Assembly: GCA_965198235.1 (NCBI GenBank)
Contig: OZ240248.1
Coordinates: 1,696,001-1,760,000 of the forward strand
Length of the DNA: 64,000 nt
DNA from: Candidatus Poribacteria bacterium
GTDB taxonomy: Bacteria; Poribacteria; WGA-4E; WGA-3G
Reading direction: 5' to 3'
Position 1 is the first letter of the stretch. Each line of letters begins with the position of its first letter. The position numbers were made by a program, and so were the translations under genes. Positions 40,421 to 50,788 of the stretch are shown here, piece by piece. The notes under the pieces were generated by a model that was not told where the DNA came from, ran no database searches, and saw only the letters and a list, made by a program, of their open reading frames with translations.

Positions 40421-40560
40421 ATAATAGTTGAGAAGAAAGAACACTTTTTTACGTCAGACTTAAGTCTCTGATATTGAACCTACATCCTTGAATACACAAC
40501 AGCTAAAAAATCTAATCGGGAATCGGGAAACACAGATTTCACTATAATTTGGAGGATAAA

Positions 40561-41865
40561 ATGCGCATAGTCGAGGCGGTATCCGTCGGAATATCTGCGA
40601 TTCATAGCAACAAAATGCGTTCGTTGTTAACGATGCTCGGCATTATCATCGGCGTCGCTTCAGTATTAGCGATGATAGCGATTGGTGATGGTGCCAAGGA
40701 GATTGTCCGGCAAGATGTACAGAAGTTAGGTGGGGCAAATCAGTTCTTTGTGCTCCGGTCTCGGCACAAGCGCGTAAACAACCGGCTGGTCCGTATTCGA
40801 CACAATGAATACCTGAAATATGGTGATGTGTTAGCAATTGAGGCAGAATGTCCATCCGTTAGTGCAGCCACACCGCAAATGTGGAACTGGGGAGGCGTGC
40901 TCATCCAAGCTTCAGGCGGCACGGAAACCCGTGCAGGTTGGAACGGTGTAGATGCTAACTATACAACCATAATGGACTGGAACGTTAAAGAGGGACGTTT
41001 TATTACAGATGAAGACGTTAGAAACGCATCAAGAGTTTGTGTGCTTGGAGACGAGGTCGCAACCGCCTTGTTCGGTGATAAATCCCCATTGGGACAAGAA
41101 ATTAAAATCGCACGAGACAGCGACTATCACAACCGGTTTGGCGTAAAAAAAGACGGAAGGCGATACACGGAGCGCTTCACGGTTGTTGGAACATTTGTGC
41201 CGAGAGGGACAAATCTCCGGTTCGGTGTCAGTTTTGACAGCCTTGCCTTTATCCCTATATCAACCAGCCAAAAACGCTTCATTGGCACCGATGAAATTCA
41301 GAATATCACGGTCCATGCACATAACGTCAAGGATGTTCCTAAGGCGGTTGAAGAGGTAAAATCTATTCTCCGAAAACGGCATAGAAATCAAGACGACTTC
41401 ATCTACATCTTTGAGATGCATAAAGGTATGGCGCAGTTAGATAAAATCAGCAGAATCATAAAAATCACCTTAGGTAGCATCGCCGGTTTCTCGTTGTTCG
41501 TCGGCGGGATCGGGATTATGAACATGATGTTAGTTGCTGTTACCGAACGCACTCGCGAAATTGGACTGCGGAAGGCACTCGGTGCCAAACGATTGGATAT
41601 TCTACTACAATTTCTAATAGAGTCAGTGATCATGTGTGGTGTAGGCGGCACAATCGGCGTTGGGTTGGGCATTCTCGCTGGTGAAGGGATGGCGATGCTC
41701 GCCGTCAAAATCGTCAAAATTGTTCCCGAATGGCCCGCTGTTATCTCCATGCAGTGGGTATTGATCTCGGTATCGGTCTCGGCGATAATCGGCATCTCCT
41801 TTGGCTTGTATCCTGCGCTAAAGGCATCATCGCTTTCCCCTATTGAAGCCCTTCGCAAAGATTAG
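40561..41865 (+). CDS. MacB/FtsX-like ABC permease
   Basis: RSLLTMLGIIIGVASV, GGIGIMNMMLVAVTERTREIGLRKALGA, PIEALR. Confidence 0.93.
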   Translation: MRIVEAVSVGISAIHSNKMRSLLTMLGIIIGVASVLAMIAIGDGAKEIVRQDVQKLGGANQFFVLRSRHKRVNNRLVRIRHNEYLKYGDVLAIEAECPSVSAATPQMWNWGGVLIQASGGTETRAGWNGVDANYTTIMDWNVKEGRFITDEDVRNASRVCVLGDEVATALFGDKSPLGQEIKIARDSDYHNRFGVKKDGRRYTERFTVVGTFVPRGTNLRFGVSFDSLAFIPISTSQKRFIGTDEIQNITVHAHNVKDVPKAVEEVKSILRKRHRNQDDFIYIFEMHKGMAQLDKISRIIKITLGSIAGFSLFVGGIGIMNMMLVAVTERTREIGLRKALGAKRLDILLQFLIESVIMCGVGGTIGVGLGILAGEGMAMLAVKIVKIVPEWPAVISMQWVLISVSVSAIIGISFGLYPALKASSLSPIEALRKD

Positions 41866-42331
41866 AATTTGGGACAAGAAAAATATTTAAACCCCCATCA
41901 GCGGTCAGCGGTCAGTAAAGAGACTTTTGTTAAACGATACCCTCTTAACCGACTGCTGACTGCTACTCCTTAGAAAATTGCGTAGGTCCTATCTAATTGA
42001 GAACCCTCTATACCCAAACAGCACCTATGACAGAATAGAATGAAGCTTAAAGAGGACCGCGCAAAACGGCGTAAGATTGTTTGGATTGAATAAAGAACGG
42101 AACCCGGTTAAAATACTGCGTAGTTGGAAAATGAGGAATATTGTTGACTTTCCTTTCAAAAGCGACTTTTTCGCTTCTTTTGCAGAATTATGCACCCTTT
42201 TTTTCTTAGTTCGCGTCACTATAGTGAAGTCAATTGATAGGGTGCCTCTTCGCAATTTGTAACCCTCCTATCTACGAAACATGGAAGTTGTATAAGTTCC
42301 TTTGATAAAATGACACTTCTGGAGATGTCTG

Positions 42332-43101
42332 GTGAGAAACGACGATATTGTATTGATTCAACGCATCCTTGCGGGTGACGCAATTGCCTTTGAGAGCCTG
42401 GTTAGAAAGTACCAGAAACGGGTTCACACGCTCGCATGGCGGAAAATTGGGGATTTTCATATCGCCGAGGATATTACGCAGGAAACCTTCCTGCAAGTCT
42501 ATCAGAAATTGGAAACTCTGGAGGATCCGACGCGGTTTCCAAGGTGGCTTTATGTGATTGCGGATCGCCTCTGTATCGCTTGGCTCCGAAAAAACCAGCG
42601 ACAAACTGAACTGCTGGAAGACACTGACATCTCAGAAATAGAGACAGAGGCGTATTCCCGATATATCGCGACGGAACACGCGAAAACTTTTGCTGAAGCG
42701 CGACGCGACTTGGTAGAAGAGTTGCTTGCGAAGTTGAAGGAAGGCAACCGAAGGTGCGTACAGTTGTGCGGAAAGAACCCATTTTGCATGCGACACAGCG
42801 GATTTCGTCAATCTCAAATCCGAAAACCTTTAAGGTCTGTTTAGAGATAGAGGAGCAACAGATTCGGATTTCGGCGGAAACCCCCGAGCCAAATGAAGAG
42901 TATGAAACATTAGCAGTGGAATCCAGCACGGGGAGTATCCGTATCGGTTTTGATGCGCGGCTGCTGATCGAGACACTCGCGCACATCGGAACGGAGTCTC
43001 TGGCACTGGAGTTCTCGGGGGCGTTGGATCCTGTGATTGTTAGACCGATTGGTGAGGAAGGACATATCTGCCTCATCATGCCGATGCTCTTGAAATCGTG
43101 A
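42332..43101 (+). pseudogene. Chimera: ECF sigma N-terminal part joined (frame offset at ~42752) to DnaN beta-clamp domain III
   Basis: 42332-42751 is ECF sigma2 (AEDITQETFLQVY...WLYVIADRLCIAWLRK); 42754-43101 (IRIGFDARLLIETL...LEFSGALDPVIVRPI...CLIMPM) matches the DnaN C-terminus. Confidence 0.75.
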
Positions 43102-43170
43102 TAGCACCTTCTTTTGAAAAGTTTTTGACAGCTTGTAAGTTATAGCGAAACCCGAAAATATGTAGACACC

Positions 43171-43740
43171 TTGGTGAGCAAAGGTCCCTCTCCTTCGCTG
43201 GCGGGGTTTCTAACCCCGCCTATCCACAATGTCAAAGTAGGGGCACCTCCACTCTATTGGCATCAAGATTGGTACTATTGGAATGATCCAATTAGCTGTG
43301 CGCCTTGGCCTCAACATATCTTTATGAAGTATTATCTTACTGATACAACACCAGAAACCGGCTGTTTAAAGGTTATTCCCGGTACACATCGCAAGCGCAT
43401 TGATTTACACGATCAACTTCTGTATGCAAGCAAACTTGGTAATGTTTTACAGCCAGGATCGGAATCAAAGGAAAAATATTCTGTGATGTTCAGTGACCAT
43501 CCGGATCAGGTGGATGTTTGCGTCAAAGCAGGTTCATTAGTGATACGAGACACACGCCTTCTGCATTCAGTACGAAAAAACTATACGGACAGACGACGCA
43601 CAATGCTTCTCGTATGGACCGCCCGTCCAAAAACCATCCCAGACTATTGGAACGATGAAATTTCTGAACCCGTTTTGAATCGAGATGAAAACAAGGACTA
43701 TCCCAGTTCACAGATCCCCAATGAATTTTTAAAAAGGTAA
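43171..43740 (+). pseudogene. Phytanoyl-CoA dioxygenase (PhyH) family, apparently N-terminally truncated
   Basis: WHQD, GCLKVIPGTH, RLLH; the 5' region is a REP-like hairpin GGCGGGGTTTCTAACCCCGCC. Confidence 0.7.
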
Positions 43741-43759
43741 CGAAAACCTGTAAGAAGAA

Positions 43760-45325
43760 ATGATGTTACGAACGCTAATACGTCAAGAACTCCTGATTCA
43801 TCTGATGAGTGCGCGTTTTTTTGCTGCGGTCGTCATTACACTCCTGCTTGTTGTTGCCAATACGTTTGTCTTGATCGGCGCGTATGAAGAACGTCTCGCC
43901 GACTATAGCCAGAAGGAAGCTGTGAATCGTGAGAATGTCGCGTCGACCTCCACCTATTCGGTCTTAAGGTTAAAGGTTCAGCGTCCTCCCAACCCCCTGA
44001 GTCTCTTTAGTGCTGGCTTAGAAACGCGTTTTGGTAGTGAGATTGACATAGCCTTTGACAGCGTGCCAGCCCTCTCAAACCCCATAGTTGATGTCAGACC
44101 AGAGGAAGAGCAGTGGGCATTTGGCAGCGTACCGTCCCTCTCAAGCCCCGGAGCACCCCTCGGTATAAATAACCCATATCTGCATCTCTTTTCACAGATA
44201 GATCTTGTCTTTATCTTTCAAGTTGTGTTGAGTCTACTGTCCCTGCTTTTCGCTTATGATGCCATTGCCGGAGATTGGGAAACCGGCACCTTGCGTTTGG
44301 TGCTTTCACACCCTGTCGGACGCGGAAGTGTCCTGCTTGCCAAATATATTGCGGCGATGGTTTGCCTGCTACTCCCCGTGTTGATGAGCCTACTGCTCAC
44401 ACTGATTCAGTGTTCCCTGGCGCGTTCGCTGCAATTCAGCACAGATGATTTTCTACGAATTGGCGGCATTGTTTTAACGACAATCGTCTACCTGTCGGTT
44501 TTCTACCTGATCGGTCTTCTCGTTTCCGCTATAACCCGTCGTGCTGCCACATCCCTGATGCTCTGCATGTTCATATACGTAGTTCTGGTACTCGTCTATC
44601 CAAACTGGAGCCGATTTGCCCTGAACCCAATGGGCAACATGCGTGCAGAAAAAATATCCACTGACAGGCGGATAGCGCAGATTCGGGAAGAAGCAAATCG
44701 AGAACGGAATCGGTTCTTGGCGAGTAGTCCGCTTAAGGGAGAACCCCCGATATTTTCAGATACCGAAGGGATTTCAACGCTCTTTAGTGGAGCGGGATAT
44801 TTCTTCCTCGGGGACTTCCCTCGGGTTAACCTTGAATTGAAAAACGCAGCAGCCCCCTTGGCACTACACTTCCGCCGTTATTATGCATTCGCCGCGCCCC
44901 TGCAAATCCGGAGTGCCGAAAAAGTCGGCTTCGTCGGTCAGCAACTGGTGGCGCAGACATCCCTCCGGCAAGCACAGTCGGATGAACGTCTCATGAAGCT
45001 CAGTCCTGCGAGTCTCTACACGTTTGCTACCGCTGCGTGGGCAGGCACCGATTTAGACAGCATGGTGGATTATGTCCAAACCGCGCGGGCATACCGACGT
45101 ACCCTCATTGACACCTTTCATGAAAGAGATACCTTCGGGAGTCTACAGTGGTTTGCCCCGAATCAAGGGAATATAGACTGGTCGATCCTACCTCGCTTTC
45201 ACTTTGAGCGGTCAGAAGTCGGCATCAACGCGCAGCGCGCCCTGCCTGAACTGTTTTTGCTGTTATGCACCAATATCGTCCTATTCATGACGACATTTTT
45301 GATTTTTCTTAAAGTTGAAGTGTAG
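43760..45325 (+). CDS. ABC-2 type transporter permease
   Basis: LLFAYDAIAGDWETGTLRLVLSHPVGRGSVLLAKY; multiple TMs. Confidence 0.85.
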   Translation: MMLRTLIRQELLIHLMSARFFAAVVITLLLVVANTFVLIGAYEERLADYSQKEAVNRENVASTSTYSVLRLKVQRPPNPLSLFSAGLETRFGSEIDIAFDSVPALSNPIVDVRPEEEQWAFGSVPSLSSPGAPLGINNPYLHLFSQIDLVFIFQVVLSLLSLLFAYDAIAGDWETGTLRLVLSHPVGRGSVLLAKYIAAMVCLLLPVLMSLLLTLIQCSLARSLQFSTDDFLRIGGIVLTTIVYLSVFYLIGLLVSAITRRAATSLMLCMFIYVVLVLVYPNWSRFALNPMGNMRAEKISTDRRIAQIREEANRERNRFLASSPLKGEPPIFSDTEGISTLFSGAGYFFLGDFPRVNLELKNAAAPLALHFRRYYAFAAPLQIRSAEKVGFVGQQLVAQTSLRQAQSDERLMKLSPASLYTFATAAWAGTDLDSMVDYVQTARAYRRTLIDTFHERDTFGSLQWFAPNQGNIDWSILPRFHFERSEVGINAQRALPELFLLLCTNIVLFMTTFLIFLKVEV

Positions 45326-45423
45326 AATAGTTGTCGGGCTTCAGCTATCGGTTTTCAGTCAGCCTGGAGGTTAGGTTCAACCGGTGGGGGCCAAGGCGTG
45401 TAAGCCCAACCAGCGGGCGGGCT

Positions 45424-45488
45424 GGATATACGAGGGAAATCGTTCCTTCTACAGCTGTTCTGACCGAACCGCAAGGAAGATTAAAGAA
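45424..45488 (+). repeat. A-type repeat arm abutting a start codon
   Basis: GGATATACG...GAACCGCAAGGAAGATTAAAGAA-ATG. Confidence 0.65.
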
Positions 45489-46273
45489 ATGATTTGGCAT
45501 ATTGTCACACGTGAACTTTTAGACCATCTCACGAGTCTACGCTTTGGCTTAACCACGTTCATCCTTGTAGCATTAATGGTAACCAACGCCGTTGTGCATC
45601 TTCAGACACATCCGGAACGGGTTCGGAAGTATTCTGAAAAGGTTAACGCGTCTCAGACCGAGTTGAAGTCCAGAACGCAGTTGTATGCGCTGTTGCAAAA
45701 GGGACTGCCTTCGACCAAATTAGGAGCGATTTCGTGAATAAATGGGAAACTTTAAGAGAACGCCGTCAATCCGCAGAAACCTTGCAGGAAGAAGTTGCAG
45801 GGGTAGACACTTCAGAATTAGAGATCCAGCGGGAGTTCGTCAACAAAGATATGGAGATTCGGGAGCGGCTTAGCCGCCAGCATCTCGCTGCACAAAGTGC
45901 TCAAGTGCTGCACGCAAGACGGATAACCCGGTGTTCACCCGCTGCGATTGTTCAATACGCGCTTGAATCCATGGCAGGCACAGGCTTTAATCGCCATTTG
46001 CAATTCTTAGAGTCCGCCAATCTTCATATCCGACAGTTCCGAAACTTCATTACTGAAATGGATCGGAGCGATCCGGAGAGTCTTCACATCATAGGGATCC
46101 GGGAAGGCATGTCGAAAACGCCCGTCCCACCAGAGGCTATCCCGATATTTGAGGATAAGTTATCTTTTCAGGATACGCTCGACCCCGCAATGGTAGATAT
46201 ATTATTGCTCATTTTACTGCTCGGTGTATCTCTTACAAGTGCATTCCTCGTTTTCCTGCGTTCAGAGATATAA
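45489..46273 (+). pseudogene. Internally deleted ABC-2 permease paralog
   Basis: N-terminus MIWHIVTRELL..RF and C-terminus SPAAIVQYA..AGT..FLRSEI parallel 43760; the central TM core is missing at ~45703. Confidence 0.75.
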
Positions 46274-49083: not shown

Positions 49084-50788
49084 ATGGAAAGAGAAGACGA
49101 TGTTCAACTAATTCGCAAAATTCTATCAGGCGACGACGCTGCGTTTGGTATCTTGGTCGAAAAGTACCAAAAAAGCGTTCATGCCCTTGCATGGCGGAAA
49201 ATCCAAGATTTTCACTATGCGGAAGAGATTATGCAAGACACCTTCCTTAGGGCATACAAAAAACTTCCGACACTCAAGAATCCCAATCAATTTGCTGGGT
49301 GGCTCTATGTCATCGCAAATCGGCTTTGCATTGATTGGATGCGAAGCCAAAAGTCTGTGATGCAATCCTTGGAGGACACACCTATTGAAGAAATCGAGGA
49401 ATCCTCTTATACACATCATATATCGGAACAGCGGATGACAGAGAGAACCGAGCGTTACCATGAACTTGTGAAAAAACTTTTGGAGAAACTGCCGGAGAAT
49501 GAACGCGCAGTTGTAACACTCTTCTATCTTGACGAAATGTCAACGAAAGAGATCAGCAAATTCGTGGGAGTGTCGGTGAATACAATTACGAGTCGACTCC
49601 ACCGAGCGCGAAAGCGTCTGCAAACAGATCATGGACCCTTGGTTCAAGAATTCTTTGGTCATTCACAATTATCAGATAATCTGAAGGAGAACATCATGAG
49701 ACAATTAGAAGAAATTCGCAGCAAGTTCAATTCATTCATGGAACAAGTGAAAGCTGACCCCGCATCAAGAGAGGATATTCTTAAGGAAGCACACAACGAG
49801 ATTGAAGATGCGCTTAAGGATGGAATCACACCTGGGTTGGTCCATCTTGCTGCCGATGATATATACCCCTATATGGGCAAACTCGGAATGGAAAAACGGA
49901 TCTCTCTACTCCGTAAGTATATGGATGACGCGCTGGAGGATACGGAGCGTTTCTGGGCGCATGACGGGTTAGTCAGTAGTCTCGCTTTTCTTGATAGAAA
50001 TCGAGAAGCTATTGAGGAACACGCTCGGCTTTACCGTTGGACGTGGGCAAGCACTTGCCGGATAAATATGTGTTGGAGACCATGCTTCCAATCTGAGCGT
50101 AGCCGGATGTTGGGCGGCGGAAGATCGTCTTGATGACTGGATTCAACTTTATAATGAAGTCTCTGAACGCTTAGAGAACCCCGGCGTGAGTTACTACAGC
50201 CGTTGCGATTTCCTGCAAACCGGAGCAGATGTCTTACGATGCAACGACAGGTTCGATGAGGCACTCCTTGGAATAGAAAAGTTGGAACGTGCTAACAACG
50301 AACCCGATTCAGAGCATTATTTTCGATTCTGGTTGATTGCCAAAGAAAATCGACTTCTCATGTACGGTAAACAGGAAGATTGGGGGCGTTTCGATCAAAT
50401 TTTTTCGGAAATGAGTGCCTATATGGAAGGAGAGTTGAAGAAACGGGATGCAGGTCAACCCGTAAATCTCAACGACCTTATGTGGTTAGCACACGATATC
50501 GGTTGTTGTCTGTTGTGGTCGAAGAAGTATAACGAGGCGAGACATTTCCTACAAGTCGCCATTGATTTGGAAGATAACAACGATTATGGGCACTTCCAAC
50601 TCGCTGTGAGCATTTGGGCTTCTGAGAAGGATCGTGAGAAGACTTTACATCATTTAAAGATCGCTCAGGACTGCTATGTGGTAAATCCCTATAATCAGGA
50701 TACGTACTACCCGACTTTCCTTGAGACCCCTGAATTTTCGGATGTAAAAGATGATAAAGAGTTTCTGAAGGTTCTGGGACAGACGTAG
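49084..50788 (+). CDS. ECF sigma factor with long helical (TPR-like) C-terminal extension; split by small indels at ~50045-50090
   Basis: Sigma2 and sigma4 in 49084-49620; reading across the shifts gives KHLPDKYVLET and NLSVAGCWAAEDRLDDW...SYYSRCDF into ORF 50186-50788. Confidence 0.75.

Follow-up and report, generated by a model that had tools for sequence, protein, structure and literature searches.

Organization of the locus

The window, a 64,000-nt stretch of a Candidatus Poribacteria genome (C1:1696001-1760000), contains two overlapping open reading frames on the forward strand that pair part of an ECF sigma factor with part of a DNA sliding clamp; the genes described below between 40549 and 46273 lie on the same strand. 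The sigma ORF (42332-42844, 170 aa) matches Pfam Sigma70_r2 over residues 23-90 (E 3.6e-16) with no region 4 found in the Pfam scan, and the clamp ORF (42754-43101, 115 aa), one base out of frame with it, matches DNA_pol3_beta_3 over positions 13-120 of the 121-position profile (E 3.6e-16). These matches and frames bear out the original prediction that region 2, the linker and the start of region 4 of an ECF sigma factor run into domain III of DnaN with a one-base offset. The sigma remnant proper (42332-42751) takes in region 2 and the linker between sigma2 and sigma4 and breaks off a few residues into region 4, at ...LKEGNR; it is 89% identical in nucleotides to positions 91-554 of the reverse complement of a relative's locus (L005). 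It is followed by a tail of about 30 codons (42752-42844), ended by a TAG, in which the DNA of clamp domain III is translated out of frame, while the domain III remnant (42754-43101) continues in the other frame to the C-terminal motif IMPMLLKS, with MPMLL at the position of the conserved clamp C-terminus. Alignments of about 17 ECF paralogues of the same genome to the sigma ORF all end at residue 145, just before LKEGNR, and DnaN homology begins at residue 2 of the clamp ORF, so the join is sharp and falls at approximately 42747-42753. It is outside any dnaA context: dnaA is found at C1:998684, far from the window, in line with the earlier remark that no dnaA-dnaN-recF cluster surrounds it.

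Neither half is a complete member of its family. An ECF (group 4) sigma factor has regions 2 and 4 and lacks regions 3 and 1.1; the window ORF has Sigma70_r2 only, and its TIGR02937 match covers only positions 2-128 of 165. A DnaN protein has three DNA_pol3_beta domains and scores above the TIGR00663 cut-off of 137.65 bits; the window copy has domain III only and scores 45.3 bits.

The join is embedded among transporter genes. Upstream lies a MacB-like ABC permease gene (40549-41865; Pfam MacB_PCD 5.2e-44, FtsX 4.6e-17), a conserved neighbour whose counterpart, at 77-96% identity, precedes the fusion gene of relatives in 14 of 26 loci (L016-L041). Downstream, one copy of a roughly 100-bp repeat that is dispersed through the genome (43140-43239; 28 blastn hits in the genome, 14-25 of which cover the core at 73-96% identity) abuts a PhyH-family dioxygenase gene of which only the 3′ part is left (43239-43740). 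Homology to PhyH begins at 43239 and covers profile positions 100-212 of 213, with about 100 codons lost at the 5′ end; the intact gene in a relative (L026) encodes 266 aa. Three sequencing runs have loose ends at 43188 and 43220, within the repeat. Separately, one contig of run X4 joins 43086 to 43239, skipping 152 nt, but its shorter side has only 27 letters, too few to support an interpretation. Next is an intact ABC-2 family permease gene encoding 521 aa (43760-45325; Pfam ABC2_membrane_2 1.9e-31, supported by synteny), which in relatives without the PhyH insert begins 1-60 nt past the stop codon of the fusion gene. A second ABC-2/DUF3526 gene (45384-46273) is split into ORFs of 117 aa and 179 aa; blastn against four relatives (L016, L033, L036 and L019) indicates that about 657-660 nt are missing from its interior, the junction being near 45695-45705. 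Judged from these alignments, the operon appears to bear two lesions besides the join, the PhyH truncation and the second ABC-2 deletion. Further downstream, an ECF paralogue (49084-50133) has sigma2 and sigma4 followed by an extension of about 165 aa, the long C-terminal extension pointed out in the original prediction.

An intact fusion gene in related genomes

A search of related genomes for proteins carrying Sigma70_r2/r4 together with DNA_pol3_beta, which the original prediction had called for, turned up the gene in undamaged form. At the syntenic locus, in the order MacB - fusion - ABC-2 - ABC-2, most species of the genus, which are sponge symbionts, have a gene for a protein of 568-590 aa composed of an ECF sigma2-sigma4 core, a flexible linker of about 20 residues and three beta-clamp domains. 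Syntenic orthologues of 571 aa and 576 aa have Sigma70_r2, Sigma70_r4 and all three DNA_pol3_beta domains, the same five Pfam families are present in all 120 of the 90%-identity clusters listed, and the ORF of 568-590 aa is uninterrupted in 21 of the 26 loci mentioned above. Among 64 other species genomes of the genus, 46 have a match spanning sigma4, the linker and clamp domain I, and 44 of these have a full-length type-1 fusion with an open frame of at least 574 aa. A type-2 fusion, built on an unrelated ECF core (28% identity), is found in nine of the 64, so that 53 have one type or the other; the 16 genomes of sister families have neither. Both halves of the intact proteins pass the family thresholds. 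For TIGR02937 (cut-off 42.9 bits), intact orthologues (P0001, L006) and type-2 proteins, each with regions 2 and 4, score 108 and 70 bits, and for TIGR00663 intact fusions with all three Pfam domains score 223.1 and 210.7 bits, 56-85 bits below the stand-alone clamps of the same lineage and of one sister lineage.

Domain III of the window is 67-77% identical to domain III of the fusion genes of relatives, compared with 60-62% to the dnaN genes of its own genome, and in the tree it falls inside the fusion-clamp clade with support of 100/100, apart from stand-alone dnaN. With intact fusions in relatives and domain III in the fusion-clamp clade, neither of the two outcomes on which the original prediction was to be given up (no intact fusion in any relative, and a domain grouping with a separate gene) was found. 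In the best tree the type-2 clamps group with a clade of 375-aa stand-alone clamps (93/93, not starred), and a single clade of all fusion clamps, a group named after seeing the tree, is not rejected by the AU test (log-likelihood difference 10.5, p 0.31). Since the fusion occurs with two unrelated ECF cores, it either arose twice or exchanged its sigma core with the clamp retained; with either history it can be argued that the pairing itself is selected. Median dN/dS among intact genes is 0.13 for the sigma part and 0.26, 0.21 and 0.40 for clamp domains I, II and III, and the fold is kept under purifying selection in both clamp types. A lineage without domain III also persists under purifying selection (dN/dS 0.27-0.37).

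The window copy is a recent deletion allele

Aligned to its orthologue, the window copy forms three colinear blocks (89%, 81% and 90% identity). Between the first and second of these, 944 nt of the orthologue are absent, a stretch that contains sigma4, the linker and clamp domains I-II; the junction is at 42747-42753. As 944 is not a multiple of 3, the frameshift arises from the deletion itself. In an independent study (P2), one 508-nt contig of run X4 spans 42571-43078 with 0 gaps and therefore also the positions 42745-42756 that the original prediction wanted inspected; X4 is the one run from which a contig bridging the junction is known. In runs X1 and X3 (study P1) and X5 (study P3, an RNA library), loose ends at 42752 and 42747 instead read the intact end of domain II and an intact sigma4. 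One such contig with the intact form is 807 nt long and has 8 differences in 523 nt. The 944-bp loss is polymorphic within the species, and since the intact allele in other runs is about 98.5% identical, the loss is recent and at strain level.

Selection estimates agree with this. Pairwise dN/dS of the two parts of the relic against intact orthologues is 0.11-0.22 and 0.19-0.58, similar to the medians of 0.14 and 0.40 for the same parts among intact genes, which also argues for a recent deletion. No relaxed selection is detectable in the relic by dN/dS, and since neither remnant has a raised value, we infer decay from the architecture alone. Regarding the mechanism, the RTV(I/V) segment that the original prediction saw in both parents at the join is indeed present in both, encoded by an 8-nt direct repeat, CGGACAGT, whose copies are separated by 951 nt. 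The breakpoint lies elsewhere: the window retains 13 nt upstream of the right-hand copy, so deletion by way of the repeat was rejected.

The original prediction had left two possibilities, the remains of a complete ECF-DnaN fusion that had suffered an internal deletion or an in-frame fusion of about 256 aa (sigma2, linker and clamp domain III) hidden by an indel error, and only the former held up. A functional mini-fusion of this kind could be entertained given that the window comes from a two-contig assembly, that the original prediction suspected indel errors in the window, and that a short GAAGG run is found in the junction. However, the 944-nt deletion explains the frameshift without any sequencing error, the X4 contig from the other study crosses 42571-43078 without gaps, and the architecture is absent among the 120 clusters and 150 representatives listed. 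A sigma factor without region 4 is also unable to read the -35 element, so a protein of this design would have no reading head for it, and we consider the mini-fusion extremely improbable. It is only marginally less improbable that the join is an assembly chimera or collapse, in which the strain is truly intact or the assembler joined unrelated fragments. The X1 and X3 contigs do break at 42752 with loose ends that read the intact form, which indicates that both forms are present in those samples. Against an artefact, run X4 has a single contig over the junction, the two flanks correspond by synteny to one gene in relatives, and a second, similar deletion occurs 3 kb downstream. The window copy has an internal deletion and a frameshift relative to intact syntenic orthologues, seen in independent sequence data, as is expected of a pseudogene. 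We conclude that 42332-43101 is very probably a copy, inactivated not long ago, of a gene that most species of this Candidatus Poribacteria genus retain intact. Since region 4, needed for -35 reading, is missing, we assume that the relic does not work as a sigma factor. The deleted allele would yield at most a sigma2 stub of 170 aa, with domain III stranded out of frame; with the promoter-like motif described below and the start codon intact, this stub could still be made and may have some effect.

Structure and conserved residues of the clamp part

An AlphaFold2 model of the intact fusion has a mean pLDDT of 81.7, with only two linkers below 50, and a pTM of 0.60, values which would indicate only that the sigma and clamp modules are separate. 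By Foldseek the clamp part reaches target-normalised TM-scores of 0.87-0.93 to solved beta clamps. In a separate comparison it is colinear with solved clamps over its full length (E 1.2e-39). Three clamp domains are retained in most copies, and the inner helices are net positive (median +3, compared with +3 to +6 in stand-alone clamps) in a protein that is acidic as a whole. The three domains, the positive inner helices and a score above the dnaN cut-off fit a DNA-encircling ring and a regulatory module equally. When the clamp part (residues 205-571 of the alignment) was modelled as a pair, without controls, the complex prediction scored 0.00 against a mark of 0.42, which has no bearing on ring formation either way.

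Specific residues set the fusion clamps apart. Both types replace Tyr356, Arg472, Gly503 and Arg568, which all or nearly all of 41 stand-alone clamps retain. Tyr356 is found in none of the 21 type-1 and none of the 6 type-2 proteins, compared with 38 of 41 stand-alone clamps; for Arg568 the counts are 4 of 21, 0 of 6 and 36 of 41, and Arg472 is retained in 3 of 21 and 1 of 6. By reference to E. coli beta, Tyr356 and Arg568 presumably belong to the protein-binding cleft, and Arg472 presumably lies beside the dimer-interface Ile-Leu. Neither fusion type keeps the cleft signature of DnaN (Tyr in RY(F/Y)LNG, Arg in the C-terminal MPMRL) as a whole; the cleft positions are remodelled and the hydrophobic MPM motif is largely retained. 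We also considered a clamp-binding-motif-like sequence in the sigma4-clamp linker, M-x-Q-E-x-L-D-I, as a ligand of the protein's own cleft, and dropped it, since family members with other extensions share the sequence as far as about residue 190.

Promoter-like motif

Alignment of upstream regions revealed a promoter-like motif, TGCACC-N15-CGCGTCA, at 42191-42218 on the forward strand, 113 nt upstream of the GTG start. The motif is conserved upstream of many fusion orthologues and is probably an ECF-type promoter. Allowing a spacer of N15-18, there are 5 exact matches in 10.33 Mb (both strands of the genome), compared with about 0.6 expected under equal base use, and all are upstream of ORFs: the relic, its two closest ECF paralogues, C1:3266133 and an ABC-ABC-dnaN cluster with a dnaN of 371 aa. 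A copy with one mismatch was seen at only one further locus. The region upstream of the ABC-ABC-dnaN cluster could not be aligned in three relatives that share the cluster. With the motif unconserved there, no regulon is established, and the idea of reading one from the motif was dropped.

Proposed roles of the intact fusion

The sigma part of the intact protein would be a working ECF sigma factor, probably driving transcription from its own promoter and of the ABC-2 permease genes that follow it immediately, and the clamp part a repurposed, non-replicative clamp. What the clamp contributes is suggested by the family to which the sigma core belongs. In 25 of 28 sampled relatives of the core, a membrane-helix-like segment at about residues 216-238 is followed by WD40, PD40, BNR, peptidase or redoxin domains. 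Neither the segment nor any of these domains is present in the fusion. The clamp would therefore stand where this sigma family normally has a membrane anchor and sensor domains. ECF sigma factors with a C-terminal extension carry it fused to sigma4 with no adjacent anti-sigma gene. In the intact orthologues the clamp begins about 20 residues after sigma4, and none of the scanned fusion neighbours (MacB, ABC exporter, PhyH, ABC-2, DUF3526 and DUF5916) matched an anti-sigma Pfam family. We tentatively favour the clamp part as a built-in regulatory or partner-binding module of the sigma factor with a remodelled peptide-binding cleft, a reading to which we give a little under an even chance. The replaced conserved clamp residues and the lineage that lacks domain III under purifying selection would both count towards it.

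Two other roles can be weighed against a built-in regulatory module. The fusion may form a ring that is put on DNA by the clamp loader, with the tethered sigma factor and RNA polymerase travelling along the DNA and coupling the adjacent transporter genes to replication or repair; in full, this would be a covalent, cellular counterpart of clamp activation by T4 gp45-gp55/gp33 and Mu MuC-beta, in which the ring would close at sites of replication or repair and bring the sigma factor and polymerase along the chromosome to their promoters. The three-domain architecture, seen as type 1 in 44 and as type 2 in 9 of the 64 genomes, purifying selection on all three domains, the positive charge of the inner helices, the close match to solved clamp folds and the flexible tether of about 20 residues are all consistent with such a ring, and phages offer precedents (PMC7892883 and PMC12867686). 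On the other hand, Tyr356 and Arg568, near-universal in stand-alone clamps, are replaced in both types, Arg472, presumably next to the dimer interface, is rarely kept, a lineage persists without domain III, and the neighbouring ABC transporters have no evident link to replication. We regard DNA-riding as rather unlikely in either its simple or its full form, and the link from replication or repair status to transcription suggested in the original prediction may or may not exist. Less likely still, the clamp could be a decoy sensor whose cleft binds a clamp-targeting peptide or natural product of the sponge community, so that the sigma factor, freed or activated, would switch on the MacB, ABC-2 and ABC exporter genes beside it. 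In the loci scanned, ABC exporter, MacB and ABC-2 genes invariably surround the fusion, and its cleft is remodelled while MPM is largely kept. The genus also has additional stand-alone dnaN paralogues, and in the window genome and 3 of the 8 relatives examined one of these directly follows an ABC exporter pair. Extra DnaN copies are also described as self-resistance to DnaN-targeting antibiotics (PMC10817943). This reading is weakened in that neither a biosynthetic cluster nor a ligand turned up, the fusion and the transporters are associated by position only, and the motif upstream of the ABC-ABC-dnaN cluster is unconserved. The remaining probability falls to some other function, or none, of the clamp part.

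The relic itself is an ordinary pseudogene, and its value lies in what it exposes. Among alternative sigma factors the ECF family is the largest, and the fused extensions of its members are interpreted as built-in sensors. To our knowledge, a sigma factor carried by a DNA clamp has so far been found only in phages T4 and Mu. A complete clamp in the position of an extension would mean either that a sigma factor is regulated in a new way, by a peptide-binding domain shaped like a clamp, or that a clamp carries a sigma factor in a cell, the first such case. The strain of the window is a natural knock-out of the fusion, and with intact and deleted alleles in one species and several other natural disruptions, sponge metatranscriptomes could reveal the targets of the fusion without cultivation.

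Comparison with known systems

The literature searched contained no description of an ECF sigma factor fused to a complete sliding clamp, in agreement with the original prediction, which knew of no sigma factor with a clamp-like domain; the main texts of PMC7826278 and PMC8999054 have 0 mentions of clamp, DnaN or polymerase III. The intact fusion clamp resembles canonical DnaN (TIGR00663) in its three DNA_pol3_beta domains, its fold and its passing of the cut-off, and differs in its lower score, the four replaced residues, the fused sigma factor and its place among transporter genes. The additional copies of DnaN that confer self-resistance to griselimycin and mycoplanecin (PMC10817943) are likewise diverged dnaN paralogues that accompany the housekeeping gene. 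Those are stand-alone clamps inside biosynthetic clusters, as described in the same source, whereas here no such cluster was seen and the sigma fusion is without counterpart.

In T4 late transcription the clamp encircles DNA and tethers RNA polymerase, so that the promoter search becomes one-dimensional scanning (PMC7892883). As in gp45/gp55/gp33, a sigma-family protein works with a sliding clamp, but the T4 link is non-covalent, made through clamp-binding motifs to the phage's own replicative clamp, whereas the fusion has a peptide bond, a diverged extra clamp paralogue and a cellular host, and its loading onto DNA is only a proposal. MuC of phage Mu enlists the beta clamp of the bacterium for transcription by RNA polymerase (PMC12867686). 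It differs from the fusion in binding the normal clamp of the host through clamp-binding motifs and working with sigma70, with no fusion and no ECF sigma factor. Closest in layout are the ECF sigma factors with fused C-terminal extensions, which include ECF41 (SnoaL-like), ECF42 (TPR), ECF238 (Cys-rich) and ECF52/53 (membrane-spanning). The modes of ECF activation described in PMC8999054 are conformational change, protein interaction and proteolysis. The intact fusion shares with these proteins a sigma2-sigma4 core followed by a fused domain in place of a separate anti-sigma factor, and differs in that its extension is a complete DnaN-type sliding clamp.

Structure of the Relic and Its Deletion

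Two overlapping open reading frames make up the relic (42332–43101), both on the plus strand and in different frames. The sigma frame (42332–42844, 170 aa) matches Sigma70_r2 (E 3.6e-16) and lacks region 4, and the clamp frame (42754–43101, 115 aa) matches DNA_pol3_beta_3 only (E 3.6e-16, profile positions 13–120 of 121). When the sigma frame was aligned with about 17 ECF paralogues of the same genome (45–65% identity), every alignment stopped at residue 145, and the clamp frame aligned from residue 2 with the last domain of the genome's two full-length dnaN genes (62% and 60%), so the join is sharp and real. Reading frames, Pfam matches and paralogue alignments thus agree with the original prediction of an ECF sigma factor joined, with a frame offset, to domain III of DnaN. 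The clamp piece also lies outside a dnaA context, as had been claimed: dnaA is at C1:998684 on the genome's contig 1, far from all three dnaN matches.

We determined how the join arose from L005, an intact orthologue syntenic with the window that has the same ABC-2 permease gene directly downstream. The window is colinear with it over 42287–42750 (89% identity), 42752–43101 (81%) and 43757–43900 (90%). The first two blocks are separated in the orthologue by 944 nt that the window lacks, comprising sigma region 4, the linker and clamp domains I–II, and since 944 is not a multiple of three, the frame offset is a product of the deletion itself. The proposed relic of a full fusion is therefore what the locus holds. 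The RTV-encoding CGGACAGT is present in both parental sequences, its copies 951 nt apart, and is the RTVV-like segment noted earlier at the join; the window, however, retains bases upstream of the right-hand copy, which puts the break a few bases earlier, between CG(A) and AGGT.

Logan contigs of four public sequencing runs were compared with window 42200–43800. A 508-nt contig of run X4 bridges 42571–43078 with 7 substitutions and no gaps, and as it comes from a different study than X1, the best holder of the sequence, the junction and its frame exist outside this assembly. This read check and the 944-nt deletion speak against the other reading first offered, an in-frame fusion of about 256 aa disguised by an indel error. 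In contigs of X1, X3 and X5 (an RNA library that may contain DNA), the match ends at 42752 or 42747 and the intact form continues beyond, reading into the last part of clamp domain II from one flank and into sigma region 4 from the other; the 807-nt X5 contig shows 8 differences in 523 positions compared. Closely related cells therefore carry an intact allele of about 98.5% identity. For the two remnants, pairwise dN/dS with 20 intact orthologues was 0.11–0.22 and 0.19–0.58, which is no higher than among intact genes and fits a recent deletion. Because a sigma2 stub without region 4 is unable to position RNA polymerase on the −35 element, we read the window copy as dead, with domain III stranded in another frame after the sigma remnant.

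Decay affects the whole locus. A PhyH-family gene between the relic and the ABC-2 gene, 266 aa in relatives, begins here at about codon 100, and its truncation point falls exactly at the end of a dispersed repeat of about 100 bp (43140–43239) with copies in roughly 14–25 other places in the genome (73–96% identity). Contigs of three runs branch at this repeat. The second ABC-2/DUF3526 gene (45384–46273) lacks about 657–660 nt relative to four relatives, and in the assembly sequence the aligned blocks on either side of the junction, near 45695–45705, overlap by some 10 nt. Neither the first ABC-2 gene nor the upstream MacB-like gene is damaged. The motif TGCACC-N15-CGCGTCA occurs 113 nt upstream of the window start codon and upstream of many orthologues, and in loci without the PhyH insert the ABC-2 gene starts 1–60 nt past the fusion stop. 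Given this motif and spacing, the fusion and ABC-2 genes probably form an operon that drives its own expression.

Intact Fusion Genes in Relatives

The 115-aa clamp piece was searched against 40 related genomes, where its best matches (67–77% identity) lay not in ordinary dnaN genes (370–380 aa) but in open frames of 576–606 aa, found only in the same genus; open-frame lengths in our genome searches are stop-to-stop. The translated frames of L005 (571 aa) and L006 (576 aa) each carry Sigma70_r2, Sigma70_r4_2 and the N-terminal, central and C-terminal DNA_pol3_beta domains in one chain, the domain combination that the original prediction proposed to look for in relatives. Pfam-verified domain content covers five full-length proteins and two that lack domain III. 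A collection of 5.8 billion proteins held at least 120 clusters at 90% identity (550–590 aa, 73–97% identical to the query), with sigma and clamp families in all 120 clusters listed; among these, the few with names are annotated as 'DNA polymerase III subunit beta', and Candidatus Poribacteria is named in one. Among the best 150 matches from 1.84 billion representatives at 50% identity, there was one full-length fusion cluster only, plus fragments.

A one-genome-per-species scan returned 42 loci, 40 titled as Poribacteria MAGs and two as 'uncultured bacterium', and the frame is uninterrupted (568–590 aa) in 21 of the 26 loci holding clamp sequence (L016–L041); L030, though intact, is not part of the trees or the dN/dS set. 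Using sigma4, linker and clamp domain I as a probe, we found an uninterrupted full-span match to this type-1 junction in 46 of 64 other species genomes of the genus, 44 of them with an open frame of at least 574 aa. A domain III probe matched only frames of 370–384 aa in 16 genomes of three sister families. All genomes are MAGs, some only 78–87% complete, so absences are soft.

Three genomes with long frames and no type-1 junction led to a second fusion (574–577 aa), which has the full set of three clamp domains behind an ECF core of another kind (28% identity to type 1) (L086:235–1962, minus; L087:671–2404, plus; L089–L094). Its clamp is 47.5% identical to that of type 1, and MacB-like genes flank it on both sides. 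The type-2 junction is spanned in 9/64 genomes, none of which has a full-length type 1, and one type or the other is full-length in 53/64. The window's genome gave no match at E <= 1e-30 to the ECF family of the type-2 core, which occurs in 62/64 other genus genomes, mostly fused to extensions of 1350–1440 aa.

DDE transposases inside the fusion gene at L031:7645–9123 and L037:7080–8198 (both minus strand) are independent natural knock-outs, and frames are split or shortened in L033 and genome G079. In one lineage (L028:6004–7386, L034:6004–7377, protein P0122) clamp domain II is followed only by a common tail of about 20 residues, and the lineage's own ABC-2 gene (44% identity) comes next. 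L028 and L034 (dS about 0.75–0.8) gave dN/dS of 0.15 for sigma, 0.27 for domain I and 0.37 for domain II, suggesting from this one pair that purifying selection still acts on the lineage. PCNA and gp45 likewise have two clamp domains per chain, so a trimeric ring is conceivable.

Properties of the Clamp Part

The type-1 fusion clamps group as a single clade (100/100, stem 0.27) in a 41-row maximum-likelihood tree, and the window's domain III lies within it, which answers the proposal to place the relic domain against DnaN. This clade joins two stand-alone clades, of 375-aa and 371-aa types, in a group confined to the genus, whose stem is long (0.34). When type-2 clamps were included, they came out as a separate clade (stem 0.38) beside the 375-aa clade (93/93). 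An AU test is compatible with all fusion clamps forming one clade (p 0.31), so one origin with a sigma swap and two separate origins are both possible.

Each sampled genus genome has at least two stand-alone dnaN paralogues, of the 375-aa and 371-aa types (loci include L058 and L059), and the 371-aa type is sometimes duplicated in tandem; in sister families a single dnaN is usual. Those of the window's genome (G000:C1:2318791–2319915, minus, and G000:C1:4351276–4352379, plus) are not near dnaA. The 371-aa gene lies directly downstream of an ABC exporter gene pair here and in 3 of 8 relatives fetched. A 706-aa representative, P0125, carries a Tubulin/FtsZ GTPase domain and FtsZ_C behind three DnaN domains, which may reflect either a DnaN-FtsZ fusion or an error of gene calling.

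The clamp part aligns colinearly with beta clamps of known structure (E 1.2e-39), and its high-confidence model superposes on them with target-normalised TM-scores of 0.87–0.93. It scores above the dnaN equivalog cut-off, yet 56–85 bits lower than stand-alone clamps. Across 20 intact genes, median dN/dS (165–190 of 190 pairs usable, by region) was 0.13 for sigma and 0.26, 0.21 and 0.40 for clamp domains I, II and III. Both fusion types replace residues that are invariant or almost so among 41 stand-alone clamps (12 of the genus, 8 of sister families and 21 distant representatives). In the numbering of the intact orthologue P0001, Tyr356 of RY(F/Y)LNG is kept in 0/21 type-1 and 0/6 type-2 clamps, Arg472 in 3/21 and 1/6, Gly503 in 0/21 and 0/6, and Arg568 of the C-terminal MPMRL in 4/21 and 0/6. 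From E. coli beta and alignment to a Pseudomonas clamp, we take Tyr356 and Arg568 to line the partner-binding cleft and Arg472 to precede the Ile-Leu of the dimer interface; Gly503 is not universal, being Glu in the Pseudomonas chain. These data show a clamp module that is under selection, yet freed of constraints of the replicative clamp.

Sigma Family and Possible Function

The relic's ECF core (51–65% identity, residues 3–190) heads more than 100 other representative clusters of 400–1279 aa, and was present in 28 of 30 representatives scanned, with extensions that include WD40, PD40/DPPIV and BNR/Sortilin propellers, peptidase S9, transglutaminase, redoxin and HTH domains. The family (P0140–P0270) mostly has one polypeptide that runs from sigma through a conserved segment of some 35 residues and a membrane helix to large propeller or enzyme domains. 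A crude hydropathy scan found a membrane-helix-like 19-mer at about 216–238 in 25 of 28 members sampled and none in the fusion, so the clamp occupies the usual place of the membrane anchor and outside domains. The paralogue at 49084–50133 instead has a soluble helical extension of about 165 aa, in keeping with the long C-terminal extension first ascribed to it.

No description of a sigma-clamp fusion was found in literature on ECF-sliding clamp fusions, ECF C-terminal extensions or Poribacteria sigma factors, and the main texts of an ECF reclassification (PMC7826278) and a review of non-canonical ECFs (PMC8999054) contain no occurrence of clamp, DnaN or polymerase III.

The intact protein combines a working-looking ECF sigma factor, a flexible tether (residues 184–203, pLDDT below 50) and a clamp-fold module. 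The six inner helices have a median net charge of +3, against +3, +5, +4.5 and +6 in four comparison groups, and are positive nonetheless in proteins that are strongly acidic as a whole. A less likely, though quite possible, reading is that the clamp part is a DNA-encircling carrier, like those of clamp-assisted transcription as described for T4 (PMC7892883, PMC2988020) and Mu (PMC12867686). Within or beside the other readings, there is a small chance that the clamp part is a decoy that senses clamp-targeting compounds and turns on the neighbouring exporters. Our tentative preference, at a little under an even chance, is that the clamp part may act, as known ECF extensions do, as an internal module for regulation or partner binding.
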